Below are positions 31,166 to 61,795 of a stretch of 64,000 nucleotides of DNA, piece by piece. Made by a program: the position numbers and the translations under genes. The notes beneath the pieces are model-generated. The model did no database searches. It saw only the letters and a program-made list of their open reading frames with translations, and was not told the origin of the DNA. The stretch's first letter is position 1. Every line of letters starts with the position of its first letter. The stretch is from an uncultured Lachnospiraceae bacterium (GTDB lineage: Bacteria; Bacillota; Clostridia; Lachnospirales; Lachnospiraceae). The stretch is taken from positions 14,894 through 78,893 of the forward strand of contig CAMBLG010000008.1 in the NCBI GenBank assembly GCA_945868435.1, in the 5' to 3' direction.

Positions 31166-31360
31166 GTTACTATTCACAGCCCTCCACCCACATGCGCACT
31201 CGTCGCCTCTTAGAGGCTCCAGTCCCGCTCCTTACGGAGCTAAGACTGCTTATGTGGGTGGAATTCCTGCTTCGCAGGCTCGATATGAATTCACAGACAG
31301 CCTCTTACATGCGAGCATGACGAGTCTGTCTGTGAATCCATATCGGCAGCGAATAGTAAT
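31166..31360. mobile_element. 195 bp structured MITE-like element between the T-box terminator and trpE
   Basis: GTTACTATTC / GAATAGTAAT ends, nested hairpins, and a conserved core shared with 61599-61795. Confidence 0.7.
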
Positions 31361-31369
31361 CTTTAAATC

Positions 31370-31740
31370 AAAATATCCCTGATACAGATTATTCTGCATC
31401 AGGGACGAATCATCGTGGTGCCACCCTTGTTCGTTGCGTGCGTCCTTGCGGAGCATTTTTGTCGTATAGGAGACGAAGTTTCCTATACGATAAGAAAGGC
31501 AGATACTTCCGCATCGGAAATATCTGCCACCAATCACGCAACCTCTTAGATACGGACAAGCTATACTCTCCATATCCGAACCCCTGTAACGTGGGGATAC
31601 GGCTCAGCTACTTAGGATTCCCCCTGTTCACCTCGCATCTAACGAATCCATTCCGGTCAAACTATCCCATCAGCTTCCACCAACCGCTGACTCTCTGTGC
31701 GGAATCACCTGCCGTACTTACCTTCGCTCAATGATTTTAT
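31370..31740 (-). ncRNA. Trp T-box riboswitch (transcription attenuator)
   Basis: AGAGA and GGTGGAA stem I distal motifs, specifier gaaTGGa (TGG at 31648-31650), T-box AAGGGTGGCACCACG, and terminator TCCCTGATGCAGA/TCTGTATCAGGGA-TATTTT; lies upstream of trpE. Confidence 0.93.
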
Positions 31741-31760
31741 GTTCTGTTTAATTGTGTATC

Positions 31761-31789
31761 AGTTTACCCTATTAACGTGAAAATGTCAA
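31761..31789 (-). promoter_or_regulatory. SigA promoter of the trp leader
   Basis: TTGACA-17 bp-TAAACT immediately upstream of the T-box. Confidence 0.75.
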
Positions 31790-31804
31790 CACCCAATTTT
31801 TATT

Positions 31805-32749
31805 TTATGCTTTTCCGTTGGCCAGCTCGCACAACTCTGCCAGCATCTTCGGCAGTTCCGTCTCCATGTTCTCATCAGAAAACTGGCAGGTTCCGACCTT
31901 TTTGTGTCCGCCACCGTTGTACTTGAGCATCAGACTTCCCACATTCACGTCAGAGGTCTTGTTAATGATGCTGTAGCCGACCGCCGCAGAGCAGCCCATA
32001 CCACCGCGTCCACTGACAATCCATGCAGAAATATTCTGCTCTGGATACATACTGTAGATCAGAAAACGGTTGCCGGTATAAATGGGATCCACACCGCGCA
32101 GATCCGAGATGATCACATTCCCCTCCACCCGGGTATACTTGGTAACCATCTCCTTGAACTTCTCCGTCTGCTCATTGTACACCTCAATGCGCTCCTGCAC
32201 ATCCGGCAAAGCCAGAATCTCCTCGGTGGACATGGTACGGCAGGCTTCCATCAGCTTCTCCATAAGCTGATAGTTGGAAATGGTAAACTTGCGCCATCTG
32301 CCCAGACCGGTTCTTGGATCCATCAAAAATCCCACCAGAATCCATCCTGTCGGATTCAGCACTTCATCCACCGTAAGATTTCCGGAATCCACCTTATCCA
32401 CAGCCTCCATCATATCGTCAAACTGTGGAAAACGCTCTCTGCCGCCATAATATTCATAAATGATTCTTGCACAGGACGGCGTAATACGACTCTCACCCTT
32501 ATACTTTCCCTCCAATGCCAGCCGCTCATGTTCGCTGGAATGATGATCGAACCATAAACCACAGCCCTCCACAAAAGGCACATTGGCCAGACAGTCATTC
32601 TCATCCACCTCTACCAGTCCATCCTGCAGATCCTTCGGATGTGCAAACCTCCAGCTGTCTATAATCCCAGCCTCCAGAAGCAATGCCCCACAGGCAAGCC
32701 CATCAAAATCAGAACGTGTTACTAATCGCACTTTGGTACCCTCCTTCAC
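31805..32749 (-). CDS. DHH-family phosphoesterase (exopolyphosphatase-like or nanoRNase-like)
   Basis: TRSDFDG, FDHH and GGGH motifs. Confidence 0.85.
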   Translation of the reverse strand: MKEGTKVRLVTRSDFDGLACGALLLEAGIIDSWRFAHPKDLQDGLVEVDENDCLANVPFVEGCGLWFDHHSSEHERLALEGKYKGESRITPSCARIIYEYYGGRERFPQFDDMMEAVDKVDSGNLTVDEVLNPTGWILVGFLMDPRTGLGRWRKFTISNYQLMEKLMEACRTMSTEEILALPDVQERIEVYNEQTEKFKEMVTKYTRVEGNVIISDLRGVDPIYTGNRFLIYSMYPEQNISAWIVSGRGGMGCSAAVGYSIINKTSDVNVGSLMLKYNGGGHKKVGTCQFSDENMETELPKMLAELCELANGKA

Positions 32750-32798
32750 CTTCTCATTCTGTACATTCTCTTATAGAAAAAGTGTACCATATTCTACG

Positions 32799-33575
32799 TC
32801 AAAGTCCAAGCTTTTTCTTCTGCTGATGACCGGTAATTCCAATGTACATATCCTGCGGCAAAAAGCGTCCAAGCGTGGTTGCTGCCTTCATGTAAAGGCT
32901 CGGCACAATCACCGTCTTGCGCCGCTTCATTCCTGTGATGGCAGCCTCCACACACGCCTCTGCCGTAATTCCCGGCAATGCGAAGGACACATGGGCCACA
33001 TCATTAAATTCCGTGTCCACCGGTCCCGGGCACAAGGCCCCGATGTACACCTTACTTCCCTGCTCCTTCAATTCTTTTGCAATCGCACGAGTCAGGCTTG
33101 CCACATAAGCCTTCGTCGCATAGTAAGTTGCCATATAGGGTCCTGCCGGAATCAGCCCCGCCGAGGATGCCACATTCAAAAGATACCCGCCACCCTGCTC
33201 CTGCATTTTCTTAAGCACCAGCTTGGTAAGCACATGCATGGCCCGCACGTTGACATCGATCATGTCCAATTCCCTGTTCAGATCCGTCTCCAAAAACGGA
33301 CCGCAGTCACCAAAGCCCGCATTGTTGACAAACACGCCTACGGAAAGCCCGGACAAACGCTCCATCAACCGGACACATTCCTCTTTCCTGGACAAATCTA
33401 CCACAAAAACAATGCTCTCGATGCCTTTTTCCCCAAGCTCTTGTGCCAATGCCTCCAGTCGTTCTCTCCTTCTTGCCACCAGCACCGGCCGATACCCTTC
33501 CGCCGCCAGTCTCCTTGCAAACTGCGCTCCAATGCCGGAGCTGGCACCGGTCACCACCGCATATGATTTTTTCAT
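32799..33575 (-). CDS. SDR-family oxidoreductase
   Basis: TGASSGIG, NNAG, YYATK (YxxxK), CPGPVDT. Confidence 0.92.
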   Translation of the reverse strand: MKKSYAVVTGASSGIGAQFARRLAAEGYRPVLVARRRERLEALAQELGEKGIESIVFVVDLSRKEECVRLMERLSGLSVGVFVNNAGFGDCGPFLETDLNRELDMIDVNVRAMHVLTKLVLKKMQEQGGGYLLNVASSAGLIPAGPYMATYYATKAYVASLTRAIAKELKEQGSKVYIGALCPGPVDTEFNDVAHVSFALPGITAEACVEAAITGMKRRKTVIVPSLYMKAATTLGRFLPQDMYIGITGHQQKKKLGL

Positions 33576-35927
33576 TTATTCTGTTTCCTCCACCTGTTCC
33601 ATAAAATAAATCCTTGATCCAAAATCCTGGAAATACCGGGTCTCGTCATTGTATCCGGTGCCCGCAAACGCCTGGTGGATCTTCACACCGGACATAAGGC
33701 TTCCTCCTGTGGCAGTGTAACACTCCGTCTCCCCGGGCATGGTCACAAATTTGGCAAGCACATTGTGTATGAGGGAATCCTGACGGATGTGAATCGGAGC
33801 CACCGTATTCACCAGGTCTCCAAATTCCTTTACATTATAACGCAGATTGCGATTGGTGAACACATATTTTTTCTCCGCATCAAGCCCTTTTGCACAGTAT
33901 TGGTCGAACTGGGAATTGGCCTGTACCAGCTCCTGCATGAGAAGTCCCACTGCCCGGGTCTGATCCTGTGACACACAGCTCCACTCATGAATATTGTCAC
34001 AACGGCCCCGGTAAAAACGCCCGGTCTGCAGTACCTCTCTCCATGCCTTGTAAACGATAATCTGGTTTTTGATTTCCTCCAGATCTTCCTTTTTCATGTC
34101 ACAGAGATTGCATTCGTATCCGAAGGAACCGAATGCCGCCACGTTAAATCTGGTGGAAAGAGGTGTCGTCCGCAGGGTCTGGTGATTCGGACATGCGGAC
34201 ACATGAGCGCTGACCGTATTCATGGGATATCCATAGCTGTATCCGGTCTGTCCCTTCACGCGGTACAGCGCATCCGTGTCATCACTGGCCCAGATTTGCG
34301 GGAAAAAGCACAGGATGCCCAGATCAAACCGATTGCCGCCGGAGGCACAGCCCTCAAAGAGAATTTTCGGAAAACGCTTCACCAGCTCTCCCATCACACG
34401 ATACAGTCCCATGATGTAGCGGTGCGCCACTTCCCCCTGGTGCGCCGCATCCAGATACGGGGAATAATAATCCGAGAAAATGCGGTTCATATCCCATTTC
34501 ACATAGGCGATGTTGGCACTGCCAAACACCTTTGTCATGGTCTCAATGATATAATCACACACCTCAGGATTAGCCAGATCCAAAATGCGTTGGTTTCGCC
34601 CCTCCGAATGAGGTTTTCCCGGAATTTCCATCACCCAGTCCGGATGCTCCCGGTACAGATTACTGTCCACATTGACCATCTCCGGCTCCACCCAGATGCC
34701 GAAATCCAGCCCAAGAGCATTGACTTTCTTACAAAGACCATCCAGTCCGTTGGGAAGCTTCTTCGGATTTACCTCCCAGTCACCCAGAGAGCGCCTGTCA
34801 TCATTCCGCTCTCCAAACCACCCGTCATCCATGACAAACAGCTCAATGCCCACATCCTTTCCGGCCTTGGCCAGGCGGAGCAGTTTTGTTTCACTGATAT
34901 CAAAGTAAGATGCCTCCCAGCTGTTTAGAAGCACCGGACGAAGCTTATCTCTCCATTCGCCCCGCACAACACACCGGCGCACAAAGTCATGCATATGCTG
35001 GCTCATTCCGTTAAACCCCTCATTGGAGCACGTCAGTACAGCCTCCGGGCTCTCAAAGGACTCTCCCGGCTCTATAAGGAAGCAAAAGGACTGCGGATTG
35101 ATTCCCGACACGAAACGGGTTTTGTCAAAAGAGCTGACCTCCACTGCCTCGTAATGATTGCCGCTGTATATCAGATTCATGCCATAGCATAGACCGGTAT
35201 CTTCATCCGTCTTTGCCTCTGAAATCATTACAAAAGGATTGGCGCGGCTTCCGGAGCTTCCGGTATAGGAAGAATTCACCAGCTTTCCGGCAGTCACCAC
35301 CGTATCATGCCGCATCATCTCCCGCGCCCAGCCACCGTTGAAGGTAGAAAACACAAATCCGCTTTTTTCAAAGTCCAGCTGCGCACTCATCAGCCGAAGA
35401 AGCCGGATGGTATCGCCGCTCATATTGATCAGCTTGGACCAGCGGGTAATGACATCCTGTGTCTCAAACACACAGTAGTGAAGCTCCAGTGTCAACTCAT
35501 AGGAAATATCCGTCAGGGTAACCACCAGTTCCTCTGTGCATCCGCTGTCATCATATGAGGACGGCAGCGTAAGGAGCGGTGTCTTTTCTGTCTTAATCTC
35601 TGCACTTTCATACCGAAAATCGCTGGTTCGGCTGCCATCTGCATGCACCACTTCCACAAACGGCTCCCGGATATCGCCTTTGCCGTAGGAAGACATCTCC
35701 AGCCGCATATCCTCCAGGGAATACTGCGGATGATCCTGGTCATAGATATTCGTATTTCCCGGCGCAAAGGCATGCTTTTCCCGAAGCACCTCCGCCTCCG
35801 CTTCCGATTCGATCACAATGCTCGGTCCATAATACAGATGCTCCAGTTGTCCTGTTGGCAGAAGACCAAAGCAGTATGTGGTATGCCCGGTATCCAATAC
35901 CCATATATTTCCCATCTGACAAATCAT
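33576..35927 (-). CDS. Alpha-galactosidase (GH36)
   Basis: NSWEA, FVMDDGWFG, FGIWVEPEMV, KWDMNR, CASGGNRFD, WASDDTD; start at ATG 35927 after GGAGGAG. Confidence 0.95.
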   Translation of the reverse strand: MICQMGNIWVLDTGHTTYCFGLLPTGQLEHLYYGPSIVIESEAEAEVLREKHAFAPGNTNIYDQDHPQYSLEDMRLEMSSYGKGDIREPFVEVVHADGSRTSDFRYESAEIKTEKTPLLTLPSSYDDSGCTEELVVTLTDISYELTLELHYCVFETQDVITRWSKLINMSGDTIRLLRLMSAQLDFEKSGFVFSTFNGGWAREMMRHDTVVTAGKLVNSSYTGSSGSRANPFVMISEAKTDEDTGLCYGMNLIYSGNHYEAVEVSSFDKTRFVSGINPQSFCFLIEPGESFESPEAVLTCSNEGFNGMSQHMHDFVRRCVVRGEWRDKLRPVLLNSWEASYFDISETKLLRLAKAGKDVGIELFVMDDGWFGERNDDRRSLGDWEVNPKKLPNGLDGLCKKVNALGLDFGIWVEPEMVNVDSNLYREHPDWVMEIPGKPHSEGRNQRILDLANPEVCDYIIETMTKVFGSANIAYVKWDMNRIFSDYYSPYLDAAHQGEVAHRYIMGLYRVMGELVKRFPKILFEGCASGGNRFDLGILCFFPQIWASDDTDALYRVKGQTGYSYGYPMNTVSAHVSACPNHQTLRTTPLSTRFNVAAFGSFGYECNLCDMKKEDLEEIKNQIIVYKAWREVLQTGRFYRGRCDNIHEWSCVSQDQTRAVGLLMQELVQANSQFDQYCAKGLDAEKKYVFTNRNLRYNVKEFGDLVNTVAPIHIRQDSLIHNVLAKFVTMPGETECYTATGGSLMSGVKIHQAFAGTGYNDETRYFQDFGSRIYFMEQVEETE

Positions 35928-35952
35928 ATCGTTCTCCTCCTCTGTCCTATTA

Positions 35953-36506
35953 TCTATGTGTTTGTGCCCCTCGCAGAACGAAGGAATGCATATCAATTTT
36001 GCGGCTTGCTCACAATCCTTCTACTCATGGATCCAGAATCACGACTTTGTTGCAGCATGGATTTCTCTTTTCTTATGATTCGTGTCCGCCATAGTCTCGA
36101 ACAATTTCCGCCGGATTGTTCGCCCAAGAGTGAGAACGGCTTAGAGTGATTCGCATTTGCCTTACATGGGCGCATGAACAAAATGTGCCGCCGCAGGGCA
36201 ACTGTTTGAGCAGCACAACATGGTGGCATATCGCTTTACTTGAAGCGAGTTTTGCCCAAGGCGGCTCATATCAACTTTGTGAAGGCGCCCATTTAGGCAA
36301 ATTCGAGGAACGGGTTAGCCTTCTCACTTGGGCGGACAACCGGCGGGAAATTGTCGACACGCATTTCGGACACGAACGTTCAGAAAAATCCATGCCGCTA
36401 ACAAAGTCAGCAATTCTGTCTAAATCGTTAGAAGGATTCGTGAGCAACCTCGCAAAAAAGACAATCGTTTTTTGCGTTCTGCGAGGAGCATCCTCAAACA
36501 CCTACA
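35953..36506. repeat. 554 bp rod-like imperfect palindrome filling the melB-GH36 intergenic region
   Basis: Collinear paired blocks 35969-35980/36475-36486, 36014-36023/36429-36438, 36079-36088/36367-36376 and 36166-36173/36285-36292; flanked by TATTA direct repeats. Confidence 0.9.
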
Positions 36507-36508
36507 TA

Positions 36509-37906
36509 TTACTTGCTACGGGTCCGAATCTGCGCATCGATTTCCTCCAGCTTCTCATCTGTCAGGAAATAATGTCTCTTGAACACCACAAATCCAATAA
36601 CCAGCACAACAATTGGCAGAATCGTCATACATCCCCGAAGCCCAATCCGCTGTCCGTCTGTGAGCACGGAAAGCACACCGGTCTCGTCCTTCTTGATGTG
36701 GAATACCGTCAGAACTATAGACGCCACAAGGGCAGAAAATCCGGATGCCAGCTTTACTACAAAGGTTTGCATGGAAAAGATCACCGACTCATCGCGGCGT
36801 CCGTTCTTCCACTCTCCATAGTCTACCGTATTGGCCAAAAACACTGTCACAATGACATTGAGCATTCCCACAGCAGCCATAATGAGGAATGCCGGGATCA
36901 AGAGCAGATATACATTCTGCGAGCCCGTGGCTGAAATGATCAGGATCATCACATATCCGGCCATTGCCATACCAAAGCTCACCGCAAACAGCTTCATCGA
37001 ATTCATGAACTTTCGAAGAAGCGGAAACAGAAGCATCATGGCAAGAATCTGAAAGACTCCGCCGCAGGTGTTAAACAGCGTGTAATTGCCCTCCCAATCA
37101 GCCGGACTGAAATCGTATTTGAAGAAGTAGATTAGAAGATTCTGGGTGATGTATAACGCCGTATTGATCATAACGATTGCAATCACCATCGTCATCGCCT
37201 GATCGTTCTGTATCAGTGCCTTAAACATATCCTTAACCGATGCCGACTCCATCTGAACGGAGGATTTTTCCTTGATGACCGTACAGGTGACGGTGATAAA
37301 TACCACAAAAGTAACGGCTACAATAAGAGCAACCAGACGGTATCCGATGCGCTCATAATCCGCATCGGTACCAAAAGCATGCCCCAGTGCACTGACTGCC
37401 ATAACCGTCACTATGGATATGATGGCGGAACCCACTCCCGCGCAGGATCTGGCCAGGGCAGAAAGTCCCTCCCGCTCTTTACCGGCCTCCGTGAATGCCG
37501 GAACCATGGACCAGTACGGAATATCCATCATGGTGTAGGTCACGCCCCAGAGAATATACGTCACCGCCGCATACGCAACCAATCCGTTACCGGAAAGACT
37601 TGGTGGAGCGGAAAACATCAGGAAAAGTACCACCGCATTGGTCAGTGTTCCAATCATAAGCCAGGGGCGGAATTTGCCCCATCTGGTTTTCGTCTTTGCC
37701 ACCAGAATCCCCATGACCGGATCATTGAACGCATCAAACACGCGTGCAACTGCCAGAATGATTCCCATGGCAATCGCACTGACCCCCATCACATCCTGAT
37801 AGTAATACAGAATATATGCTGCGGACAGCATGTACACCATATCCTTGCCTACCGCACCGATGCCGTAGGCAAACTTCTCTCCCCCGGATAATTTCTTTGT
37901 TTCCAT
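36509..37906 (-). CDS. melB: Glycoside-pentoside-hexuronide:cation symporter (MelB-like)
   Basis: AYGIGAVGKD, FDAFNDP, TRWGKFRPW, YTMMDIPYWS, VDYGEWK. Confidence 0.88.
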   Translation of the reverse strand: METKKLSGGEKFAYGIGAVGKDMVYMLSAAYILYYYQDVMGVSAIAMGIILAVARVFDAFNDPVMGILVAKTKTRWGKFRPWLMIGTLTNAVVLFLMFSAPPSLSGNGLVAYAAVTYILWGVTYTMMDIPYWSMVPAFTEAGKEREGLSALARSCAGVGSAIISIVTVMAVSALGHAFGTDADYERIGYRLVALIVAVTFVVFITVTCTVIKEKSSVQMESASVKDMFKALIQNDQAMTMVIAIVMINTALYITQNLLIYFFKYDFSPADWEGNYTLFNTCGGVFQILAMMLLFPLLRKFMNSMKLFAVSFGMAMAGYVMILIISATGSQNVYLLLIPAFLIMAAVGMLNVIVTVFLANTVDYGEWKNGRRDESVIFSMQTFVVKLASGFSALVASIVLTVFHIKKDETGVLSVLTDGQRIGLRGCMTILPIVVLVIGFVVFKRHYFLTDEKLEEIDAQIRTRSK

Positions 37907-37933
37907 ATATTACAGCCTCCTTATTGTTACCAG

Positions 37934-40375
37934 TTATTCTACAGTAAACTCTATCATCTCAGTGCCTGCCTGCCCGCCTTGAATCATAAGCTTCGCCAGT
38001 CCTGTTTCTCCGATGGTCCTGATATATACACCTGTCATTCCACCCCGAAGTGTCACAACAGACGGACCGATCAGAGCAATGGGGCCTTCCGTTTTCAGCT
38101 CCAGCGGCTCCTGGTAAAACGGCAGCGGATTGTCATTGTTGTCTAACGCCCGTATCCGAACCTCCGCCACATCATAGCTGTTCTTCTCTTCCAATTTCGT
38201 ATGTGACGGCTTTACCTCCAAGTGCAGACTTTGCATGGGTTCCTTTACAACCCGCTTGACCACCTGTCCATCCTTTATGGCATCAAACCGATACACCGTG
38301 GCAGTCTCACCCCAGTTTCCGACATACTCGGTATACAATCTCACCACATCCTTGGGCTTCATATGATAGAAGGTCAGGCATTCCAGTGCACTAAGAATAT
38401 GTTTTATCGGCAGGTGAGCATATCCATATACAGCAGCGTAATTTAATGCCGATTTAATAATATCCGCCTGATGTGTCGTAAAGGATTCCTTCTCATGAAT
38501 TTCATTCCCAATAAAGTCATCAATCAGGATGGGGCCATGCGCCAGATTCCGGTAGGGGGAATCCTCTGCCCGGTATTCCTTGATAAAAACATCATTCTTA
38601 TACATCCGCACCCGCTCTGCATTCGTAAATATATAGATTTTTCCGCGATTGCAGGCCGGATGTTCCCCGATATCCATAGAGGAGCTCAGCTCCAATATCG
38701 GCGTCTCCTCCTGCTGACATGCATAAATCAGTGCCGCAAGCTTGGGATTCCGGTACATGTCCAGCACCCCATGATAGCAGATCCGGTCTCCGCTCCCGAA
38801 ATCCTTATGGGTATTGTAGTCAAACATACACCAGCCAAAGCTTCCCGCGATATCCGCTTCACCTGCTACCGCATCCAGTACATTTGCGTGACGAAGCGCA
38901 TGTTCCACCCGGTGTTCTTCACAGTCAAAGGGTTTTGTCGGATACATGTGCCCATTATATTCGCTGATGAGATACGCCTTGTTGGTATCCGAGGTTACCT
39001 TCGCCTTTGGCTCACACCCCGCCGCCTTTCCGTCATGTACGAAATCGTTATAGGTATACACATCCTCCAACAACTGGCTCTTCTTATGCGCCCGCACACC
39101 TCCGGTACAGCGCCCGTCTCTCTGGGCGTGCGCCATCTCATTGGTCCGGCGGTAGAATTCCTCGTCATCCACAGACTCATTGATCCGGACGCCCCACAAA
39201 ATGATGGACGTGTGATTCCGGTATTGTTCGATCATTTCCCTTACATTTTCGACCGCCTGATCCTTCCATTCCGCATCACCGATGTGCTGCCAGCCCGGAA
39301 TCTCCATAAACACCAGAAGCCCCAATTCATCACACCGGTCTACGAAATAGTGGGACTGGGGATAATGGGAAGTGCGAACTGCATTGCAGCCCAGCTCATA
39401 CTTTAAGATATCGGCATCCAGCTTCTGCATGGACTCCGGCATGGCATAACCCACATAGGGATAGCTCTGATGGCGGTTCAGCCCCCGAAGCTTTAACTTC
39501 TTTCCGTTCAGGTAAAAACCGTCTGCCCGAAAATCCGCCACACGGAATCCAAATCGTGTAGTATTCTGATCCATGCAGACTCCATCCCTGAGAAGCTGCG
39601 TCTCAAGCACATAGAGAACCGGAGACTCTGTGGACCATAATCGCACGTTTGTCAGGGAAAAGGTATCTTCTCTCTCTGATTCTGAGAGCACCTGCTCCGT
39701 CAGAAGCCGGCTTTCCTCCCCACAGGATTCATCTGCCGGTTTTAATGTTCGGCGAATGGTGTATCGACTTCTATCCGTTTCACTGCTTATTCCAGCAATC
39801 TTAATTTTTGTTTTAAGTTTTGCATTCATCACTTTTCCATCATATGCAGTTTCCAGAGCCTCTCCCGATATATCCGTCTGTACAAATTCAGCTTCAATAT
39901 GTACTTTCTCTCTCACATCCAGATACACATCCCGATAGAGACCACCATATGTCATATAATCAATGACAAATCCAAAGGGCGGAATATTCTGCTGTTCCCT
40001 GCTGTCTACCTTGATTACAAGCACATTGTCTGTACCATAGCGAAGCTTCTCTGACAGTTCTACAGAGCAAGCGGTATATCCGCAATGATGTTCTTTTATT
40101 AAATCCCCATTTAAATAAATCCAAGTTGAGTGTGCAGCACCCTCAAGAGTAAGACTTACACTTTTTCCTTCCCACTCTTCCGGGACCTTCCACACCTTCC
40201 GGTATCCACACACCATCTGATACAAACTCTCATCAAAATAATGGAACGGGGTTTCCTTACATGTGTGTGGCAGACGCACGGTCTGAGCACTCTCACTTTG
40301 GTAATCGTCCCCCAAAAGTCGATCCGTGTACCGCTCTTCAAAAATCCAGTTATCGTTTATATAGATTCTTCCCAT
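37934..40375 (-). CDS. Glycoside hydrolase family 2 (beta-galactosidase)
   Basis: GLNRHQ, VRTSHYPQ, WGVRINES, SEYNGH. Confidence 0.92.
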   Translation of the reverse strand: MGRIYINDNWIFEERYTDRLLGDDYQSESAQTVRLPHTCKETPFHYFDESLYQMVCGYRKVWKVPEEWEGKSVSLTLEGAAHSTWIYLNGDLIKEHHCGYTACSVELSEKLRYGTDNVLVIKVDSREQQNIPPFGFVIDYMTYGGLYRDVYLDVREKVHIEAEFVQTDISGEALETAYDGKVMNAKLKTKIKIAGISSETDRSRYTIRRTLKPADESCGEESRLLTEQVLSESEREDTFSLTNVRLWSTESPVLYVLETQLLRDGVCMDQNTTRFGFRVADFRADGFYLNGKKLKLRGLNRHQSYPYVGYAMPESMQKLDADILKYELGCNAVRTSHYPQSHYFVDRCDELGLLVFMEIPGWQHIGDAEWKDQAVENVREMIEQYRNHTSIILWGVRINESVDDEEFYRRTNEMAHAQRDGRCTGGVRAHKKSQLLEDVYTYNDFVHDGKAAGCEPKAKVTSDTNKAYLISEYNGHMYPTKPFDCEEHRVEHALRHANVLDAVAGEADIAGSFGWCMFDYNTHKDFGSGDRICYHGVLDMYRNPKLAALIYACQQEETPILELSSSMDIGEHPACNRGKIYIFTNAERVRMYKNDVFIKEYRAEDSPYRNLAHGPILIDDFIGNEIHEKESFTTHQADIIKSALNYAAVYGYAHLPIKHILSALECLTFYHMKPKDVVRLYTEYVGNWGETATVYRFDAIKDGQVVKRVVKEPMQSLHLEVKPSHTKLEEKNSYDVAEVRIRALDNNDNPLPFYQEPLELKTEGPIALIGPSVVTLRGGMTGVYIRTIGETGLAKLMIQGGQAGTEMIEFTVE

Positions 40376-40383
40376 ATCTTCTC

Positions 40384-40953
40384 CTATTCGTTTACAATTC
40401 CATCGACCAAAATGTTCACCACTTCATTTAATGCATCCTGATAACTGATCCGGTTTACCACCAGAACATCTCTCTGAAAAAATTGCTCCAGCGTGGCCTC
40501 CATCATAGTCTTAAACACAACTACATTGACTGGACGGATGACACCTTCTTCAATTCCCTGCTGGATCAGCTCAATCGTTGCCTCCCACCCGGTTTCCAGT
40601 CGTTCCTCCACCTTGCGGTAGATATTCGGATATTTATCCTTCAACTGATACAACTGTCCAAAGTCAACATCGACATAGCTCTCCGGAAGCACACACAGGA
40701 TTGCGCGGATCTTTTCCACCGTACTCAGAGTTCTGTTATGTACAACCTCAGCCTCGCTCTCTTTGATCCGGTCAAAACAATAATCCACCATCTGATAGAA
40801 CATCGTCTCTTTGTCCCGGAACACGCGATAGATGGTCTTCTTGCTCATGGACAACTCTGCGGCGATATCGTCCATGGTAAATTTTAATCCTTTTCGATTA
40901 AATACTTTCATGGTTGCCTCTAGGATTTTCTCCTTGTTTTCCTGACCTTCCAT
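40384..40953 (-). CDS. TetR/AcrR-family regulator
   Basis: N-terminal HTH FTMDDIAAELSMSKKTIYRVF; first gene of the galactoside operon. Confidence 0.92.
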   Translation of the reverse strand: MEGQENKEKILEATMKVFNRKGLKFTMDDIAAELSMSKKTIYRVFRDKETMFYQMVDYCFDRIKESEAEVVHNRTLSTVEKIRAILCVLPESYVDVDFGQLYQLKDKYPNIYRKVEERLETGWEATIELIQQGIEEGVIRPVNVVVFKTMMEATLEQFFQRDVLVVNRISYQDALNEVVNILVDGIVNE

Positions 40954-40991
40954 TCCACAATTTCCTCTTCTTCTGTAATCTTACAACTGCC

Positions 40992-41083
40992 GGAAACTAT
41001 TTTTCGTCATACCGTTTCCACATGTTTATTCTAGCATGTCTGAATGCAGCATACAAGAAACTATTCTCACAAAATTGGTTTCC
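40992..41083. promoter_or_regulatory. Two candidate TetR operators
   Basis: GAAACTATT-N12-GTTTCC at 40993-41019 and 41057-41083, same length, 64 bp apart. Confidence 0.6.
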
Positions 41084-41209
41084 TGTTTTTATGCATTTTT
41101 ACAAGACAAACGATGGAAAACTTGGTATAATATGATGCAAATGCATAAGAATTGCAGAGATTACAAGGAATCAAATTCCGCATAACATAAAGGAAGGGAG
41201 ACATCAAAT

Positions 41210-42481: not shown

Positions 42482-42486
42482 ATGCA

Positions 42487-42522
42487 ATAACGGTATCGCA
42501 TTTATCTCTGCGATACCGTTAT
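42487..42522. terminator. Hairpin between convergent larC and a hypothetical gene
   Basis: ATAACGGTATCGCA-tttatctc-TGCGATACCGTTAT perfect 14-bp stem; weak U tracts. Confidence 0.55.
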
Positions 42523-42936: not shown

Positions 42937-42956
42937 CGTAATTCCTTCCATTCCTG

Positions 42957-44960: not shown

Positions 44961-45027
44961 AAAACCATTGGTCTCCTTTACCAAGCATTTTAAAAATTAT
45001 ATCCATCATACCATTCCTGATGAAAAA

Positions 45028-50553: not shown

Positions 50554-50565
50554 GCGCTATCTCCC

Positions 50566-50597
50566 AAAAAAACCGGCGTCGCATCTCGACGCCGGTA
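50566..50597 (-). terminator. Intrinsic terminator after the MCP gene
   Basis: Minus strand ACCGGCGTCG-agatg-CGACGCCGGT followed by a T run. Confidence 0.88.
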
Positions 50598-50610
50598 GTC
50601 TGTCTGACCA

Positions 50611-51981: not shown

Positions 51982-51983
51982 GT

Positions 51984-52487
51984 CTATTCTTCTCCTTCTC
52001 CGTTTTCCTCTTCTGTTTCCACCTGGTTGATTACCGCCAGGTCTTCATCATTCAACAACCGGTCCGGGTCTAATAGCAGCTTCACTGCATCCCCCACCTT
52101 GCCGATTGCATATACATACTTATTCTGAGACTTGTCGGCTTTCCCAATCGTTGGAGACGGAAGAATGTTTTCCTCCTGTATCTCAACCACCTCTGCGATT
52201 TTTTCCACAATCAGCCCCACCACCGTATCACGGAAATTAATCACTATGATACAGGTTCTGTCATTGTACTCGAAGGGCTCCTGTTTAAATCGTATCCGCA
52301 CATCAATGACGGGAATGATCTTGCCTCTCAGATTAATCAACCCCTTAATGTAATCCTCACTCTCCGGGATCTCCGTAATCTCCTGAAAAACAATGATCTC
52401 GTTGACATACTCAATTTTCAATCCGAAGTATTCGTTTCCCGATTTGAAGGTCACATACTTATCTTTTTGCGTATCGTGCTCCACCAT
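51984..52487 (-). CDS. cheW: Chemotaxis adaptor CheW
   Basis: [22 protein letters not shown]. Confidence 0.94.
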
Positions 52488-52528
52488 ATTTTCTGCTTCC
52501 TTTCTTCTGCATGGTATCTTCCGGCGTT

Positions 52529-54682: not shown

Positions 54683-54714
54683 ATCGTTCTCCTTTCTCTT
54701 TTTGTATCACACTT

Positions 54715-55107
54715 CTAGATCATTCCCAGTTTTTGCAATGCCTGCTCAAACTTCGCCTGATCAATGGGCTTACCGGAATACACCGTGCATCCCAGCTCAA
54801 ATGCCATTTTCACATTCTTCTCATCATTCAATGCAGTGGCCATAATAACCTTCGCCTGCTTCTCTTCCGGCACATTATGCGCCTTCTCCAAATTGCGGAT
54901 TCCAACCAATGCCTGGTAACCGTCCATCACCGGCATCATGATATCCAGGCACACCAGATCATACGGATCATCATCCTCCAATGCCATCATATATGCATCG
55001 ACGGCTTCCATTCCATCTACCGTAACATCACAATCCCCATACTTCGACAGGAAATTCGCCATAAACTTTCTTGTGACAAAATCATCTTCTGCCAATAAAA
55101 TCTTCAT
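54715..55107 (-). CDS. cheY: Single-domain response regulator (CheY-like)
   Basis: LLAEDD, CLDIMMPVMDG, MATA, KPI; lies between cheB and cheA. Confidence 0.8.
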   Translation of the reverse strand: MKILLAEDDFVTRKFMANFLSKYGDCDVTVDGMEAVDAYMMALEDDDPYDLVCLDIMMPVMDGYQALVGIRNLEKAHNVPEEKQAKVIMATALNDEKNVKMAFELGCTVYSGKPIDQAKFEQALQKLGMI

Positions 55108-55117
55108 CGTATACCTC

Positions 55118-56161
55118 CTACATTTTGTTCAACAAGCTGTATGTTCTCTTTGGAATATCGCCGAGCTTCTCCTGGTACTGCACTGCTCCGAGATCGTAAG
55201 CAACCTTCGGCATTCCATATACTACACAGGTGGACTCATCCTGACCAATGGTTTTCGCGCCGGCTTCCTTCATGGCTAAAAGCCCTTTTGCACCGTCTCC
55301 CCCCATTCCGGTCAAAATAATGCCAAGTGCACGATTTCCGACCACTTTTGCAACGGAATCAAACAACACATCCACGGATGGACAATGACCGTTCACCTTC
55401 GGGCCCGCCTTGCACTCTACCTGATATTGATTTCCAACTTTCACGACTCTCATATGCCGGTCTCCCCCGGGAGCAATGAGAACCTGCCCGGGCATAACCA
55501 CATCTCCGGTCTCAGCCTCTTTCACTCTCACCCGACACTGGTCATCCAGTCTTTTTGCATACATCTGGGTAAATCCCGCCGGCATATGCTGAACGATCAC
55601 AACCCCCGGGATATCTGTACCGAATTCCTTAATGACAGAAGCAATCGCCTCCGTTCCTCCGGTGGAAGCACCGATTGCAACCATAAGATTTCTGTCCTTA
55701 TCTGTACCACGCAGACCCACGGATGCGTGTTCCGCAAGATCAAGAGTCTTTTTCTTAATTCCGCTGATTCTCGCCGTGGACGCAATCTTAATCTTGAGCG
55801 GAAGCTCTGTTTTTAAAAACGATTCCAGCTGGGCTCTGTCTGAGTTTCTCGGCTTGGCAACGAAATCCACCGCGCCGGCCTGCAGTGCATCAAACACCTT
55901 GTCGCTCAAAGAGCTTATCATAACAACCGGAAGCGGATATTGCGGCATCAGCTTTCTCAAAAATTCAATTCCATCCATGCGTGGCAGCTCGACATCCAGA
56001 GTCATGACATCCGGTCTGTGCTCCAATATAGCATCTCTGGCCTGAAAAGCATCCCCTACTGCAGCTACAACTTCTATGGCCGGATCACTCTTCAAGCATG
56101 CAACCAACAGTTCCCGAAAGACCAGCGAGTCGTCAACCACCAATACTCTTATCTGGCGCAT
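55118..56161 (-). CDS. cheB: Chemotaxis methylesterase CheB
   Basis: REC domain plus IGASTGG, VQHMP, PSVDVLF, LTGMGGDG. Confidence 0.97.
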   Translation of the reverse strand: MRQIRVLVVDDSLVFRELLVACLKSDPAIEVVAAVGDAFQARDAILEHRPDVMTLDVELPRMDGIEFLRKLMPQYPLPVVMISSLSDKVFDALQAGAVDFVAKPRNSDRAQLESFLKTELPLKIKIASTARISGIKKKTLDLAEHASVGLRGTDKDRNLMVAIGASTGGTEAIASVIKEFGTDIPGVVIVQHMPAGFTQMYAKRLDDQCRVRVKEAETGDVVMPGQVLIAPGGDRHMRVVKVGNQYQVECKAGPKVNGHCPSVDVLFDSVAKVVGNRALGIILTGMGGDGAKGLLAMKEAGAKTIGQDESTCVVYGMPKVAYDLGAVQYQEKLGDIPKRTYSLLNKM

Positions 56162-56162
56162 A

Positions 56163-57002
56163 TCAATTAATTCCTTCCTGTTTTCTAAATATGGACGGTT
56201 TGATCATGGTAAAAGGCGTTGTTCCGCGATCAAGCGTCTCCGTCCTTCCTATAAACAGATAACCGCCCGGCACTAAGGTATCATACACCTTTCGAATCAG
56301 TTCTGTTTTGGTCTTATCATCAAAATATATCATAACATTCCGAAGAAAGATGACATGCATCTGTTTGCGGAATGGAAATTCATCCATAAGATTAAATTTA
56401 CGAAACAACACTTCTTTTTTTAATTCATCAGTAGCCCGATATTGCTCTCCATCCGGCAACGCGCGGAAAAACCGCCTTTTCCAGGCTTCCGGCAGCGCAT
56501 TTACCTGCTCGCTGCTGTACACACCCCGCATGGCCTGCTGCAGCACATTGGTGGAAATATCCGTTGCGAGCACCTGCGTATCCCAGTCGTCAAATTCCAG
56601 CCCGAAGAACTCCGCAAGCACCATTGCAATTGCATAGGGTTCCTCCCCTGTAGAGGATGCCCCACACCAGATACGAACATCTTTGCTGCGCTGCTCTCTC
56701 TGGCGAATCCAGGGAAGAACTTCCTGCTTTAGATAATCAAAATGCTCGGATTCCCTCATAAAAAATGTATGATTGGTGGTCAGCATATTCACAAGCTTTT
56801 TTTCTAAAGATCCGCTTACATCCTGATCCATGGCATCCATAAACTCTGTATAGCTGTTCCACTCGCTGGACCTAAGGAAATTATCCATTCTTCCATTCAT
56901 AATCTCCTTTTTCCGGCTCATGTCAATTCCATACCGCGTTTTTAAGAAGCGGTAGATCCGATTAAATTCTGCGTCTGTCATCACCGTCGTATAATCAGAC
57001 AT
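56163..57002 (-). CDS. cheR: Chemotaxis methyltransferase CheR
   Basis: TTNHTFFMRE, SSTGEEPY, ATDIS, RNVMIYFD. Confidence 0.96.
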   Translation of the reverse strand: MSDYTTVMTDAEFNRIYRFLKTRYGIDMSRKKEIMNGRMDNFLRSSEWNSYTEFMDAMDQDVSGSLEKKLVNMLTTNHTFFMRESEHFDYLKQEVLPWIRQREQRSKDVRIWCGASSTGEEPYAIAMVLAEFFGLEFDDWDTQVLATDISTNVLQQAMRGVYSSEQVNALPEAWKRRFFRALPDGEQYRATDELKKEVLFRKFNLMDEFPFRKQMHVIFLRNVMIYFDDKTKTELIRKVYDTLVPGGYLFIGRTETLDRGTTPFTMIKPSIFRKQEGIN

Positions 57003-57038
57003 ATTTCACCTCTTTTGTAACCATACTTCCGCTCCGTC

Positions 57039-58097
57039 TCAGTGAAGCTGACGGGAAATCTTCTTACATATATCAACCAATTCGGGATTAAACTTCACAC
57101 CGGATTCCAGATCCAGGATTTCAAGGGTATCCTCTCTGGAATACGAACTTCTGTATCCGCGCGATTCCGTAAGTGCACAAAAAGCACCCATAAGCGCCAC
57201 CACCTGCGCCGCCAGAGGAATCGCATCCCCCTTCAGACCGCAGGGATAACCGCTGCCATCCCAGTTTTCATGATGATAATGTGCAATCTCCATGGACATC
57301 TGAATAAAATCATTGTAATCATCCGCAAGCACATCCTTTAAGATATCCGCCCCCACAGTCGTATGCGTATGAATCAGTTCCACCTCATCCTTAGTCAGCC
57401 TTTCTGTCTTGGTCAGGATCTCACTTGGAATAGCCACATTGCCCAAATCCTGCAGTGGTGCGGCAATTGATATGGTCTCCACAAAGCTGTCGGAAACCAG
57501 ATCCTCATACTTTGGCGAGAGCTGCATTGCGCGGGAAAACACCTTACTGTTGTACTGCAGCCGCTCCATATGGTCCTCGTCATAACCGGCACTCTTTCTG
57601 GCCACACTGACCATGGCATAGAGAACCTTCTTTTTCTCTTTTTCCATCTGTATCAGCTGCTCATTGACAGACGCCTGCAGCCGCCTGTTGGTTTCGGCCA
57701 GTTCCTGCGCTGCCTGATGCAGCTTTAAATGTGTGCTGACACGAGCCTGCACAACTTCCTGAATAAACGGCTTTGTGATATAGTCCTCACCGCCAAGACT
57801 AAAACCGGTAATAATATCATCCGGCTCATCATACGCAGAAATAAAAATAATCGGGATATCTCTTGTCACAGGATCTTCCTTCATGAGCCTGCAAAATTCG
57901 TATCCATCCATCTCCGGCATGGAAACATCCAAAAGGATCAGCTGAGGGCGATGTCTCTCGACAATGCGAAGCGCCTGCACACCATTCTCCGCAAGAATCG
58001 GCTGCAGTCCCATATCGGTTATTATATTGCGCAAAACAAATCGATTGGTCTCAACATCGTCAACGATGAGAATCCATGGCGTATCCCTTCTGTCCAT
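57039..58097 (-). CDS. REC-HD-GYP protein with degenerate active site
   Basis: REC domain, HHENWDGSGYP; HD motif reads LQDLG. Confidence 0.88.
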   Translation of the reverse strand: MDRRDTPWILIVDDVETNRFVLRNIITDMGLQPILAENGVQALRIVERHRPQLILLDVSMPEMDGYEFCRLMKEDPVTRDIPIIFISAYDEPDDIITGFSLGGEDYITKPFIQEVVQARVSTHLKLHQAAQELAETNRRLQASVNEQLIQMEKEKKKVLYAMVSVARKSAGYDEDHMERLQYNSKVFSRAMQLSPKYEDLVSDSFVETISIAAPLQDLGNVAIPSEILTKTERLTKDEVELIHTHTTVGADILKDVLADDYNDFIQMSMEIAHYHHENWDGSGYPCGLKGDAIPLAAQVVALMGAFCALTESRGYRSSYSREDTLEILDLESGVKFNPELVDICKKISRQLH

Positions 58098-58127
58098 GCG
58101 TTTCCATCTCCATCTTTTACTACACTT

Positions 58128-59546
58128 TTATCTTTTGGGAAGCAGAGCCTCCAGGTTACTGTGTGTTTCCATTGTCTTATCGTAATCAGCCTTCTGTACC
58201 GCCATCTTCAACCGAAGCGTCGCGGTCTTGATCTCACGGGGCGCATTTTCCGTCAGTTGCCGGATTACCTCCATGAACATCTCGGCCTTTTCCCAGTTAT
58301 CCATCTCAACGGCCAGAACAAGCTTCGACATCTTGTCCTCTAACTCATTGCTGTTATCTTCTGTGCCAAATACGTAAAGTGTATTTTCCTCTTTCTCCGC
58401 TGTCTCGAAGAAGCTCTGGGTCTTGTCGTCTAACTCCATCGGAACGGAATCCACTTCATCCTCCGGGATATCTACCCACACGGAAAATGTGAAATTCGTC
58501 CCCTTATTCTTCTCACTCTCCACATTGATGCTGCCACCCATCAGCGTAACCAGCTGCTTGCTGATGTTCAGCCCCAAGCCTGTGCCGCCGTACTTTCTCG
58601 ACACCGAGGCATCCACCTGAGAGAAGCTCTTGAACAGCTTGTCCTGATCGGCTTTATCGATACCGATTCCCGTATCCGTCACAATGAAGAATAATTCCAA
58701 ACGATTGGCTTTGCGTGATGTCATAAGTACCTCCAGGGATACTTTACCCACGGACGTAAACTTGCACGCATTCGACAAAATATTGTTGAGCACCTGCACG
58801 ATTCGAAGTTCATCGCCAATCAATCGTTCCGGAATCTCCGGAGATACGGTCACAAAGAACTGGAGCCCCTTCTCTGTAATCTTAGGCATGTGGTTTGCCT
58901 TCACATAATCAATCATGGACCGGAAATCAAACTCCCTGATCTCCAATGTAAATTTTCCTGCCTCCAGCTTGGAAAAATCCAATATATTGTTAATGATATT
59001 GTTCATATCATTACAACCGCGTTCAATCAACCGCAGCGTTCCCGCCAGTTCCGAATCCGTAATTTTCTCCTGCAGGATCCGGACATTACCCAGAATCCCG
59101 TTAACCGGAGTCCGAAGTTCATGGGTCACGTTAGCCACAAATTCCGACTTGACCTTCGCCGCCTCATCCGCCTCCTGCTTCACCTGCGTGATGCGGCGCT
59201 CCAAAAACACCTCATTGGTCACATCAATCAGGAGACAAACATACTCATATTCCGGGATTCCCGCATGAATGTAACGGAATCTGGCCGGAAAACAGGTGCG
59301 GTTTCTGCGATATACCATCACGGGTTTCTCTGAATCTCCAAAGGACAGTTCTGTCCGAAAGCCCTCCGGTGTCTTTTCAAAGGTTCCGGCAAACACCTCA
59401 CTGATATGGACTCCCGCAAGTCCCATGGGATAATCCAATGTAACATTCGCCGCAGGATTCGTATGTGTGATCACACCCTGCGCATCGAATGATACACTCA
59501 TCTCCACTGTGTTTGTCTCAAAAAATTTAAGGATCTGCTGATTCAT
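58128..59546 (-). CDS. Soluble PAS-like histidine kinase with a helical C-terminal domain
   Basis: PAS-like N-terminus (ITHTNPAA), THELRTP, NACKFT, DTGIG, GGTGLGL; no TM helices. Confidence 0.88.
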   Translation of the reverse strand: MNQQILKFFETNTVEMSVSFDAQGVITHTNPAANVTLDYPMGLAGVHISEVFAGTFEKTPEGFRTELSFGDSEKPVMVYRRNRTCFPARFRYIHAGIPEYEYVCLLIDVTNEVFLERRITQVKQEADEAAKVKSEFVANVTHELRTPVNGILGNVRILQEKITDSELAGTLRLIERGCNDMNNIINNILDFSKLEAGKFTLEIREFDFRSMIDYVKANHMPKITEKGLQFFVTVSPEIPERLIGDELRIVQVLNNILSNACKFTSVGKVSLEVLMTSRKANRLELFFIVTDTGIGIDKADQDKLFKSFSQVDASVSRKYGGTGLGLNISKQLVTLMGGSINVESEKNKGTNFTFSVWVDIPEDEVDSVPMELDDKTQSFFETAEKEENTLYVFGTEDNSNELEDKMSKLVLAVEMDNWEKAEMFMEVIRQLTENAPREIKTATLRLKMAVQKADYDKTMETHSNLEALLPKR

Positions 59547-59574
59547 TGCCCGTGCCCCCGCATCCTAACTATTA

Positions 59575-59603
59575 ATTATAGTAAATTTGTACCAGAAAAT
59601 CAA
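59575..59603 (-). promoter_or_regulatory. SigA-type promoter of the kinase-che operon
   Basis: TTGATT-17 bp-TATAAT directly after the degV stop. Confidence 0.6.
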
Positions 59604-60491
59604 CTAGTCCACACGTTCTTTTCCCCAAAAGAACAGAGCAACTGTTCCCGGCCCTGTATGACTGCCGATGGTTGTACCAATGGAATTGATCTCCACCTTT
59701 CCGTTCAGCTTCGGGAAACGGGCTTCCACCAGCTCTGCTACTGCCTTTGCATCTTCCTCACAGGCAGAATTGGAGATATAGCATTTGCCGTCATAATCCA
59801 ATCCGTTTTCCGCATTCTGTTCCATCCTGTCAACAATTTCCGCAATAACCTTCTTCTTAGTACGTACTTTCTGACGCGGAATCAGCTTTCCCTCAAAATT
59901 CACATTTAAGAGTGGACAGATATTCATAACATTGCCGATAAAACCGGCTGTCTTGGAGACACGTCCTCCCTTCACATAGAAGGTCAGGTCCGTGGAGAAG
60001 AACCAATGCTGTAGCTTCTTCTTATTTTCCTCAGCCCATTTCCTCACCTCATCAATGCTTTTGCCTTCATCCCGCAGGTCCGCTAGCTTATCCATCAGCA
60101 GTCCGTAACCGGAAGAAGCCGCCAGTGAATCTACAATAAAAATGTTGCGCTCCGGATACTTTTCCCGAAGCATTCCCTGCGCAATACGTGCAGAATTGAC
60201 AGAACCGGATATGCCGGAGGAAAGTGTCAGATGAAGGATATCCTTCCCTTCCTGTAAAAAGTGCTCAAAATATTCACAATATTCTTCTACATTAATCTGT
60301 GATGTTTTGGTATCTGCGCCGTCTGTCATGCGCTGATAGAATTCGTCGAAAGGAATGGACTTTCCCAAATCATCCATATACGGAGTTCCATCCAACTCAA
60401 AATGAAAACAGATAAAAGAAATGCCGCGTTTTTCAAAATGCTCCCTGCTTAAGTCCGCAGTGGAACAGCAGCTTAATATAAAATCAGCCAT
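59604..60491 (-). CDS. DegV/FakB-family fatty acid-binding protein
   Basis: KTSQIN, LSSGISGS, VDSLAASSG, GGRVSK, SHTGPG; promoter TTGTCA-17 bp-TATAAT at 60583-60555. Confidence 0.93.
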   Translation of the reverse strand: MADFILSCCSTADLSREHFEKRGISFICFHFELDGTPYMDDLGKSIPFDEFYQRMTDGADTKTSQINVEEYCEYFEHFLQEGKDILHLTLSSGISGSVNSARIAQGMLREKYPERNIFIVDSLAASSGYGLLMDKLADLRDEGKSIDEVRKWAEENKKKLQHWFFSTDLTFYVKGGRVSKTAGFIGNVMNICPLLNVNFEGKLIPRQKVRTKKKVIAEIVDRMEQNAENGLDYDGKCYISNSACEEDAKAVAELVEARFPKLNGKVEINSIGTTIGSHTGPGTVALFFWGKERVD

Positions 60492-60622
60492 GTCGCCATA
60501 TCCTCCTATTCGTTGTCCGCCGGGTCATACACATACTTTCCGGACGATACCACTATTATAGTATAAAACACGGCGCATGACAAGGTAACGCTCTCAAAAA
60601 CTCTCTCAAAAAATGTGCTGTT

Positions 60623-61567
60623 TTAGGGAAGTTCCGTCATACCGCCCAGCAGAATCCCAATATTATCCCGGTAGATTTTCTCAAACTGGCTCATAGGAAG
60701 CGGATTGATGCCGAGACCGGCCTCGATTGTATATCCCGGCCGGTCGTAGCTCTCTATAAACCAGTCTTTGTATCCCGCATAGCCGGAAGCAATCGGAGTC
60801 TGTTCCACCGTATATCCGCTCACACGCCCAAAGTACTCTGCGATCCGTTTTGAATTCTCCGGCTCATAATTCAAATACTTCCAATAAATAACCTCGCCCT
60901 GCGTATGATACGCCAGAATCAATTCAAAGTTATGATCGATTGTGAAATCATACATCGCCCGGCTCTCCGGCGCAATGAGAGGTGCAACTCCCACATAATC
61001 CCGGGGTGCCGGCTTTGTATACCCCTGCGCAAACTTAATTTGTTTTGCATTTTCCCATCCTGCCGGGAACTGCAGATTCAGATCCACACCCTCGATATTA
61101 GCCTTCCAGCCTGTGGGAAAGGAAATCTGTGGATACTGTTGCCCGATGCTTTTGGCCCTGCTGTAATATTCTCCCTCTGTCAGTGCCCCGTTCACCAGAT
61201 CCACACCATCGGGATTCACCATGGGAATCAGATACAGAGAAAACTGTTCAAAGAGAAGTCTCGGATACACACCCAGCACGGTATCCCCAGCCACATACTG
61301 TTCCATCAACTGCTCCGCAAACCGCAGCAGCACCGGCGTTGTAATATTCTCATTGGCATGAAACGAGGCATTATAGCACACCTCTCTCGTTCCCTTTCCC
61401 AATTTGAGATAATAGATGTCCTTGCCCATTACGCTTCGCCCGATCGTCCCCATCTCGATATACGGATACTTTGCCACAAGATTGTCAATGACCGTTGCCA
61501 AAAGCTCGTATGTGTAGTTTTGGTCTACCGGAACAACTGAGTTATACTGTTCAATCAGATCAGCCAT
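60623..61567 (-). CDS. M14 gamma-D-glutamyl-meso-diaminopimelate peptidase-like protein
   Basis: FHANE zinc motif, PMVNPDG, WKANIEGVDLN, AYHTQG, GYKDW. Confidence 0.85.
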   Translation of the reverse strand: MADLIEQYNSVVPVDQNYTYELLATVIDNLVAKYPYIEMGTIGRSVMGKDIYYLKLGKGTREVCYNASFHANENITTPVLLRFAEQLMEQYVAGDTVLGVYPRLLFEQFSLYLIPMVNPDGVDLVNGALTEGEYYSRAKSIGQQYPQISFPTGWKANIEGVDLNLQFPAGWENAKQIKFAQGYTKPAPRDYVGVAPLIAPESRAMYDFTIDHNFELILAYHTQGEVIYWKYLNYEPENSKRIAEYFGRVSGYTVEQTPIASGYAGYKDWFIESYDRPGYTIEAGLGINPLPMSQFEKIYRDNIGILLGGMTELP

Positions 61568-61598
61568 ACGTCCACTCCATTTGATACATTTCTATTTC

Positions 61599-61795
61599 GT
61601 ATCTATTCAGAACCCTTCCCCATACATTCGCAAAACCGCACGACAAATCGTGCTTTCTCGCTGCTACGCAGCTAATTTTGCTCATATACGGGGCGGTGAC
61701 TCTATTCGAGCCACCTTACGAATTAGATAATCAGCTTCTTACATGCAAGCATGACGATTCTGATTATCTAATTCTAAGGGGTTCTGAATAGATAC
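61599..61795. mobile_element. 197 bp MITE-like element with 17 bp TIR and 8 bp TSD
   Basis: GTATCTATTCAGAACCC / GGGTTCTGAATAGATAC perfect inverted ends; TCTATTTC duplicated at 61591-61598 and 61796-61803. Confidence 0.9.

Follow-up and report, generated by a model that had tools for sequence, protein, structure and literature searches.

Two structured elements of an uncultured Lachnospiraceae bacterium are copies of a miniature transposon with IS66-type ends and a Clostridiales-1-related core that probably folds as single-stranded DNA

The 64,000-nucleotide stretch analyzed here (the window), from contig CAMBLG010000008.1 of an uncultured Lachnospiraceae bacterium (assembly GCA_945868435.1), contains two elements of just under 200 bp that keep the same branched fold while the stems that build it have diverged. 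They raise the question of what such a pair represents, and whether its fold acts as RNA or as single-stranded DNA (ssDNA). An earlier note had suggested a structure, RNA or ssDNA, that is recognized by protein and belongs to a mobile family, possibly an undescribed one. Both elements and all eight of the stem motifs named there were found where it had placed them: copy A (subfamily A, 195 bp) at 31166..31360, with the minus strand as structured strand, and copy B (subfamily B1, 197 bp) at 61599..61795, likewise on the minus strand. The results below indicate that they are almost certainly copies of a non-autonomous miniature transposon (MITE, for miniature inverted-repeat transposable element) with IS66-type ends.

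The marks of a mobile family are many copies, inverted ends, target duplication and an empty site, and mobility as proposed in the earlier note is thereby supported. The terminal motifs described there, CTATTC and GAATAG, are present but are parts of longer ends, namely 10-bp inverted repeats of the form GTWWCTATTC; in copy A these lie at 31166..31175 and, with the final base altered, at 31351..31360. The 8-bp target duplication is perfect at copy B (TCTATTTC at both 61591..61598 and 61796..61803) and degenerate at copy A, where the left flank (31158..31165) has no clean duplicate on the right side, with 6 mismatches in register. To search the genome and the family, a covariance model was derived from 25 homologues. 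In the genome it yields 23 full copies (195–197 bp), every one between predicted genes (predicted with a simple script of our own): seven of subfamily A, seven of B1 and nine of B2, with mean identity of 92–97% within a subfamily. The duplication is perfect in 11 of the 23 and has at most one mismatch in 16; in a control, end pairs within 260 bp of each other show a perfect duplication in 17 of 43 cases, and distant pairs show one with at most one mismatch in 0 of 206. A further 43 loci are partial, many of them having lost internal sequence at short repeats with both ends and the duplication retained; a 33-bp B-type remnant of this kind, with both ends and 6/8 of the duplication, lies in the trp operon at 29123..29155. 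The empty site for copy B was found in one of four sequencing runs, X8, from a near-identical strain, in which a 1289-base contig skips 205 bases (197 + 8), the 8 letters fitting either side; copy A is absent from the orthologous trp loci of two aligned congeners (G413 and G023; G and L numbers are handles for genomes and loci). Junctions of an excised circle were not seen, but contigs are unable to rule these out.

Beyond this genome, the covariance-model search that the earlier note had proposed recovers homologues in 46 of the 150 genomes searched, which sample the family at one per genus, and the named records with close copies are Lachnospiraceae. A plasmid or phage origin was considered and set aside: the only full plasmid match is a single 252-kb Agathobacter replicon, none of the viral contigs carries the 19-mer or the promoter-class motif described below, a check that did not extend to 17 viral loci, and the other candidates are five unannotated, unverified scaffolds with related MITEs. 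These five, filed in GenBank as 'Bacteriophage sp.' and marked unverified (L041–L045), carry IS66-type MITEs, one of them beside a tRNA-like sequence, and may be bacterial DNA. Head-to-tail tandem and mixed MITE arrays occur at L009, L042, L098, L099, L152 and L322, some with abutted ends, and a further IS66-type subfamily, with worn ends and no middle hairpin, is represented at G000:C18:32009-32183.

The ends identify candidate movers, and with them the family ceases to be one without known relatives, as the earlier note had thought possible: the ends are of the IS66/ISBst12 type with matching autonomous elements, and the core matches the Rfam motif Clostridiales-1 below its cut-off. Longer elements that share the ends and encode a transposase, for which a search had been suggested, were found as whole IS66 elements by fetching divergent matches. 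The partner of the B subfamilies (L051) is a 1797-bp insertion sequence (IS) with a single IS66 transposase frame (484 codons; NCBIfam IS66, 260 bits against a cut-off of 180) and an 8-bp duplication, and at both of its ends it matches the opening 17 bp of the B consensus exactly. The partners of subfamily A (L060 and L061), whose ends equal the first 14 bp of copy A, are 2.2–2.9 kb long with 350–550 bp upstream. Transposases of A-end and B-end elements are 24% identical. Within the genus, IS66 is present in 49 of 121 genomes, and one of the first 30 loci has the MITE (B) end; most of these 30 that have detectable ends show GTAAGCG, and the classical three-gene IS66 was accordingly rejected as partner, as was ISLre2, with matching ends at none of 25 loci. 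Similar ends, one open reading frame (ORF) and an 8-bp repeat are described for ISDge4 of the ISBst12 group in the part of PMC12898284 that treats it. The MITE thus shares with the IS66 family and its ISBst12 group the ends starting with GTAAC/GTTAC and the 8-bp duplication; it differs in lacking a transposase, in an interior that holds no remnant of an IS body, and in having two end types that lead to two transposase clades. The core has no match in the bodies of 10 autonomous IS, two chance-level matches apart, and comes from elsewhere.

On the structured strand each copy consists of two arms separated by a small middle hairpin. In copy A, arm 1 (31183..31262) encloses inner hairpins at 31205-31217 and 31227-31240, the middle hairpin (31266..31278) is closed on the minus strand by a c(GAA)g triloop, and arm 2 (31281..31345) ends in a gCTCGc apex with an internal loop; in copy B the corresponding parts are arm 1 (61618..61693, whose base shows tandem G-A pairs on the minus strand and which encloses inner hairpins at 61638-61653 and 61660-61672), the middle hairpin (61695..61715) and arm 2 (61720..61774, gCTTGc apex). 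None of 200 shuffles of either copy folds as well, whether DNA parameters are applied to the plus strand (z of -8.4 for A and -10.3 for B) or RNA parameters to the minus strand (-12.5 and -15.6). A 107-residue ORF across copy A and matches to miRNA were taken as by-products of the hairpins. The conserved 21-mers at 31303-31323 and 61737-61757 differ, as the earlier note had it, by a single base, but they do not form a loop: each folds into a stem of 4 bp that is capped by a gCNNGc tetraloop and sits on a small internal loop. Their near-invariance holds within the clade of A and B and not beyond it, where 0 of 27 homologues found with the model have the 21-mer exactly and 2 of 27 have it within two mismatches; a GC-RR-GC apex (R, purine) is retained in about 23 of the 27. 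The stems described as rewritten have indeed diverged, yet they are homologous, with 132 of 201 aligned positions the same between the A and B1 consensus sequences. The covariation is real: among the 25 sequences, which are related by descent, 32 of 44 pairs have changed on both sides, and 91.7% of pairing cells are paired, compared with 74.3% in shuffles and 33–38% with slid partners.

The relation of the core to Clostridiales-1 (RF01699, cut-off 48 bits) extends the picture to other transposons. Copy B scores 29.9 bits against this model (61609-61785), copy A gives no match, and other copies in the genome score 26–32; the same genome has one true member, at 121.7 bits, with different ends, and within the genus 39 of 101 genomes carry true members. 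Ten canonical copies from one genome (G055) are 214 bp long, nine of them identical and one with a single change, and canonical elements show a 5–6 bp duplication in 13 of 18 full copies compared with ~14% for mismatched flanks. An 1871-bp element with canonical Clostridiales-1 MITE ends (L277, G096:C103:7-1877) encodes a transposase with DUF772 and DDE_Tnp_1_6 domains that scores 137 bits where the family cut-off is 270, hence the designation IS1182-like rather than family member. The duplications flanking canonical MITEs are often TATAA-like, and -10 boxes may be a preferred target. Clostridiales-1 and the present core share the strand, the multi-stem layout, the GCUUGC apex and the tandem-GA arm, and the exact 19-mer of the arm-2 apex recurs in IS1182-ended elements of the Clostridiales-1 kind. 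They differ in that the canonical members examined are bounded by IS1182-like ends and by the shorter duplications, in that copies B and A fall below the cut-off or give no match, and in that what Rfam lists as a small RNA is mobile DNA by the present data. The portion of PMC2864571 concerned with it calls Clostridiales-1 a probable RNA that is not cis-regulatory. Among the papers listed by literature searches, none showed a mobile reading of the motif; the MITE catalogue of PMC11602168, or supplement S1 of PMC2864571, may hold such elements or a remark to that effect.

The 19-mer is shared by a third class of elements as well. Its 118 exact loci sort, by rough patterns that misfile a few IS1182-ended ones, into 55 IS66-ended, 14 IS1182-ended, 10 of the third class and a remainder of 39, among which is a Bacillales genome. 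Seven copies of another element with the same apex were seen in Pseudalkalibacillus caeni, which lies outside Clostridia (L118, L134, L140, L148, L168, L174 and L202). Elements of the third class (L413, L415-L442, L462-L527) have no terminal repeats like those of the other two and directly follow TATAAT, a sigma-A -10 box; they have a conserved 5' end and tandem internal repeats, and the genes downstream are unrelated. At 60 distinct metagenome loci the -10 box is preceded by TG (T in 54 and G in 57 of 60), and 38 of the 60 have TT at the -35 position, these flanking bases lying outside the search pattern. Among 49 downstream ORFs found for this promoter-adjacent class, the 42 tested include no transposase, so that no autonomous form was seen there. 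Core-bearing structures also occur just upstream of the 5' end of 16S rRNA at two loci (L100 and L192).

The loops provide the evidence on the nature of the nucleic acid. In a census of 42 non-redundant elements out of 79, in which homologous positions are counted repeatedly and the counts are therefore not independent, the minus strand has GNA in 43 of its 56 triloops and the plus strand in 0 of its 54, whether DNA or RNA energies are used with loop bonuses off, and the genome background for both strands together is 551 of 3317. Tetraloops show no preference for GNRA (8, compared with 9 GNYA), and UNCG occurs once. Mismatches are G.A in 33 cases and C.T in none, with tandem GA/GA seen 23 times; G.T (18) is not in significant excess over A.C (13; p 0.47). 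In the promoter-adjacent class, a single homologous middle hairpin has DNA-stable loops in 56 of 58 cases (cGNAg 18, cGNABg 21 and cGNRAg 17), and the 39 cGNAg and cGNABg loops together are not special to RNA. The GC-RR-GC apex is found in 30 of 30 Clostridiales-1 cores, and the tandem-GA motif in 28 of 42 elements and in 17 of 18. DNA stability of GNA loops is documented in the pertinent part of PMC3201870. The ssDNA half of the earlier proposal is favored by these loops, and the fold of the core probably acts as ssDNA and not as RNA. Among loops reportedly stable in DNA (Nakano 2002, by its title as cited in PMC3201870 and PMC10085684) are cGNNAg, cGNABg, cCNNGg and gCNNGc.

If the fold acted as RNA instead, it could be self-closing, so that insertions in leaders and spacers are tolerated or processed, or it could be a small RNA as the Rfam class implies. 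Several features are compatible with this: the minus strand is more stable as RNA and uses more G-U (0.046, compared with 0.025 for the plus strand), canonical Clostridiales-1 cores have 4–10 G.T and no A.C, gCUUGc and tandem GA are stable in RNA as well, the structured strand of the promoter-adjacent class is predicted to be the transcribed one, two copies stand immediately before a 16S rRNA start, and both window copies are sense to the next gene. An RNA role is nevertheless quite improbable, given loops of the GNA, GNAB and GNYA types with no leaning to GNRA or UNCG, and given the orientation and decay of inserted copies. Full copies are randomly oriented to transcription (co-directional flanks ++ 9 and -- 7), their structured strand is the leading strand in 12 of 23, and neighboring genes are unrelated, which is not what is expected of a cis-regulatory element or riboswitch.

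Change per site in paired and unpaired positions is equal in the three subfamilies (0.016/0.016, 0.044/0.048 and 0.025/0.026); the host thus does not maintain the fold once a copy has inserted. Eight compensated double changes (seven distinct events) are observed where ~0.5 is expected, and no broken doubles. This combination fits selection between mobile lineages together with repair of stems by template switching. It also suits a fold with no function at all, an inherited fold-back that rides between MITE ends, with template switching keeping its stems complementary, and the persistence of short forms points the same way; but template switching explains neither one-strand loops that vary only inside DNA-stable classes, with G.A and C.T so unequal, nor an apex common to rewritten stems and three end types, and a functionless fold is thus very improbable. 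Among partial copies the structured strand is the lagging-strand template in 29 of 41 (p 0.012; G000), a lean expected if this strand folds at the fork.

These findings lead to a reading that is favored by a modest degree of confidence: the IS66-ended MITE is moved in trans by IS66 transposases, and its Clostridiales-1-related core has been selected as fast-folding ssDNA that aids movement, rather than as a regulatory RNA of the host. In outline, IS66 transposases of the ISBst12 type would act on the element in trans when one strand becomes exposed, be it as lagging-strand template, in a transcription bubble or as the strand displaced during copy-out. The exposed strand of ~195 nt would fold up compactly, with loops at its tips that resist nucleases, and would thereby bring both ends next to each other in a protected duplex on which the transposase could act, something for which a stiff double strand of 200 bp is poorly suited; pairing of the ends would favor excision or copy-out of an element whose shortness hinders easy looping. 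This juxtaposition of the ends is a tentative step and less probable than the rest of the reading. Copies with an intact fold would start new subfamilies, arm-to-arm template switching would provide the compensatory changes, and the cassette has probably been passed between end types: two IS66 clades, the IS1182-like element and the promoter-adjacent class. It is conceivable, and on present evidence doubtful, that Clostridiales-1 as a whole is no RNA gene but a portable ssDNA device that raises the mobility of any MITE capturing it, swapped among the IS66 clades, the IS1182-like family and the promoter-targeting class, and that it reveals an ssDNA step in DDE transposition.

Part of the same evidence could be read differently, with the core as an ssDNA signal for a protein of the host or of a third party (a single-strand initiation site priming the second strand on an excised circle, or an HUH substrate) that was captured several times by DDE-type ends. 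Sequence-specific features constant across end types (the GC-RR-GC apex and the tandem-GA motif), the position of the class without inverted ends directly after -10 boxes, which are sites of DNA melting, and the tandem arrays at L009, L099 and L322 would suit such a signal. The link to an HUH nuclease that the earlier note had raised was not borne out: the core lies beside none of 48 Y1/HUH loci, 18 of them RAYT-like, and beside none of the three IS110 and four Y1 loci of promoter-class genomes. In a comparison with the bridge RNA of IS110, the motif is likewise at 0 of 3 IS110 loci (five genomes searched), and its internal loops are small. Together with the absence of the 19-mer from viral contigs and the single full plasmid match, the lack of Y1/HUH neighbors renders an ssDNA signal of that kind unlikely. 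The RAYT-like Y1 proteins of the genus (~200–320 residues; L395–L412) have flanks almost devoid of stable-loop hairpins.

Several observations weigh against movement by IS66 transposases aided by an ssDNA core, among them the RNA-compatible features and the non-independent loop counts given above. The A-type transposases score 149–155 bits, those of L060 and L061 149–152, below the NCBIfam cut-off, and only one of nine listed autonomous IS66 elements has a perfect 8-bp duplication, with one more showing 7 bp; collapsed assembly may be the cause in the others. An IS66 transposase was not found in the organism's own assembly, which is 83.7% complete, and the mover is for this reason inferred from congeners; IS256, ISLre2 and Y1 transposases were not found in that assembly either. 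Close homology with Clostridiales-1 is weakened by 13 canonical loci that model R1 leaves unmatched at E 0.001, and by the lack of any exact 21-mer among the model-found homologues. The contrast in orientation between partial and full copies is not significant (Fisher p 0.18), and the lagging-template lean is not repeated in the IS1182 class (10 of 25; G062 and G020). Finally, short forms of 32–98 bp, and of 38 bp in the IS1182 class, are frequent and retain the duplication; since such forms persist, and since the autonomous IS lack the core and still move, it is not a strict requirement for mobility and at most enhances it.

Within the window, a scan with Rfam at its cut-offs gives no match. 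Copy A lies between the terminator (31375-31406) of a trp T-box leader (31398..31740, minus strand; 88.6 bits, cut-off 93) and trpE, which encodes anthranilate synthase component I (29732..31144, minus strand) and is 21 bp away; copy B lies 31 bp before a gene for an M14 zinc carboxypeptidase (60623..61567, minus strand). A second small hairpin repeat occupies 31443-31501 within the T-box leader and recurs at six further loci of the genome, several of them just before terminator-like hairpins; a piece similar to it is nested in arm 2 of the element at L104. Insertion into leaders such as that of the trp T-box may change expression of host genes as a side effect.

Structured MITEs of other bacteria, such as Correia/NEMIS, ERIC and RUP, are described with effects at the RNA level and with one transposase family each. 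The present element resembles them in being non-autonomous, intergenic and fold-back, with many decayed copies, and differs in that its core shows a DNA-type loop code on one strand and occurs with several types of ends. Elements of the REP/REPIN and IS200/IS605 kinds depend on a Y1 HUH enzyme and lack terminal inverted repeats accompanied by 8-bp duplications; common to them and to the present element are one-strand hairpins with GNA loops, and the differences are its 8-bp duplication and the lack of a Y1 association at the 48 loci or in its own genome.

For the family, the outcome is that a motif common among gut bacteria and an orphan in Rfam gains an identity: those canonical Clostridiales-1 copies that were examined are MITEs that expanded recently and have an IS1182-like partner, and annotation of the motif as a small RNA is likely to mislead. 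Complex ssDNA structures are rare and difficult to distinguish from RNA, according to the relevant passages of PMC5737381. The loop code applied here is one way of separating the two kinds of structure, and if the ssDNA reading is true, the core would be among the few complex branched ssDNA structures in bacteria. For the transposases of IS66/ISBst12 and IS1182, which are poorly understood, the element also provides a substrate that is small and amenable to testing.

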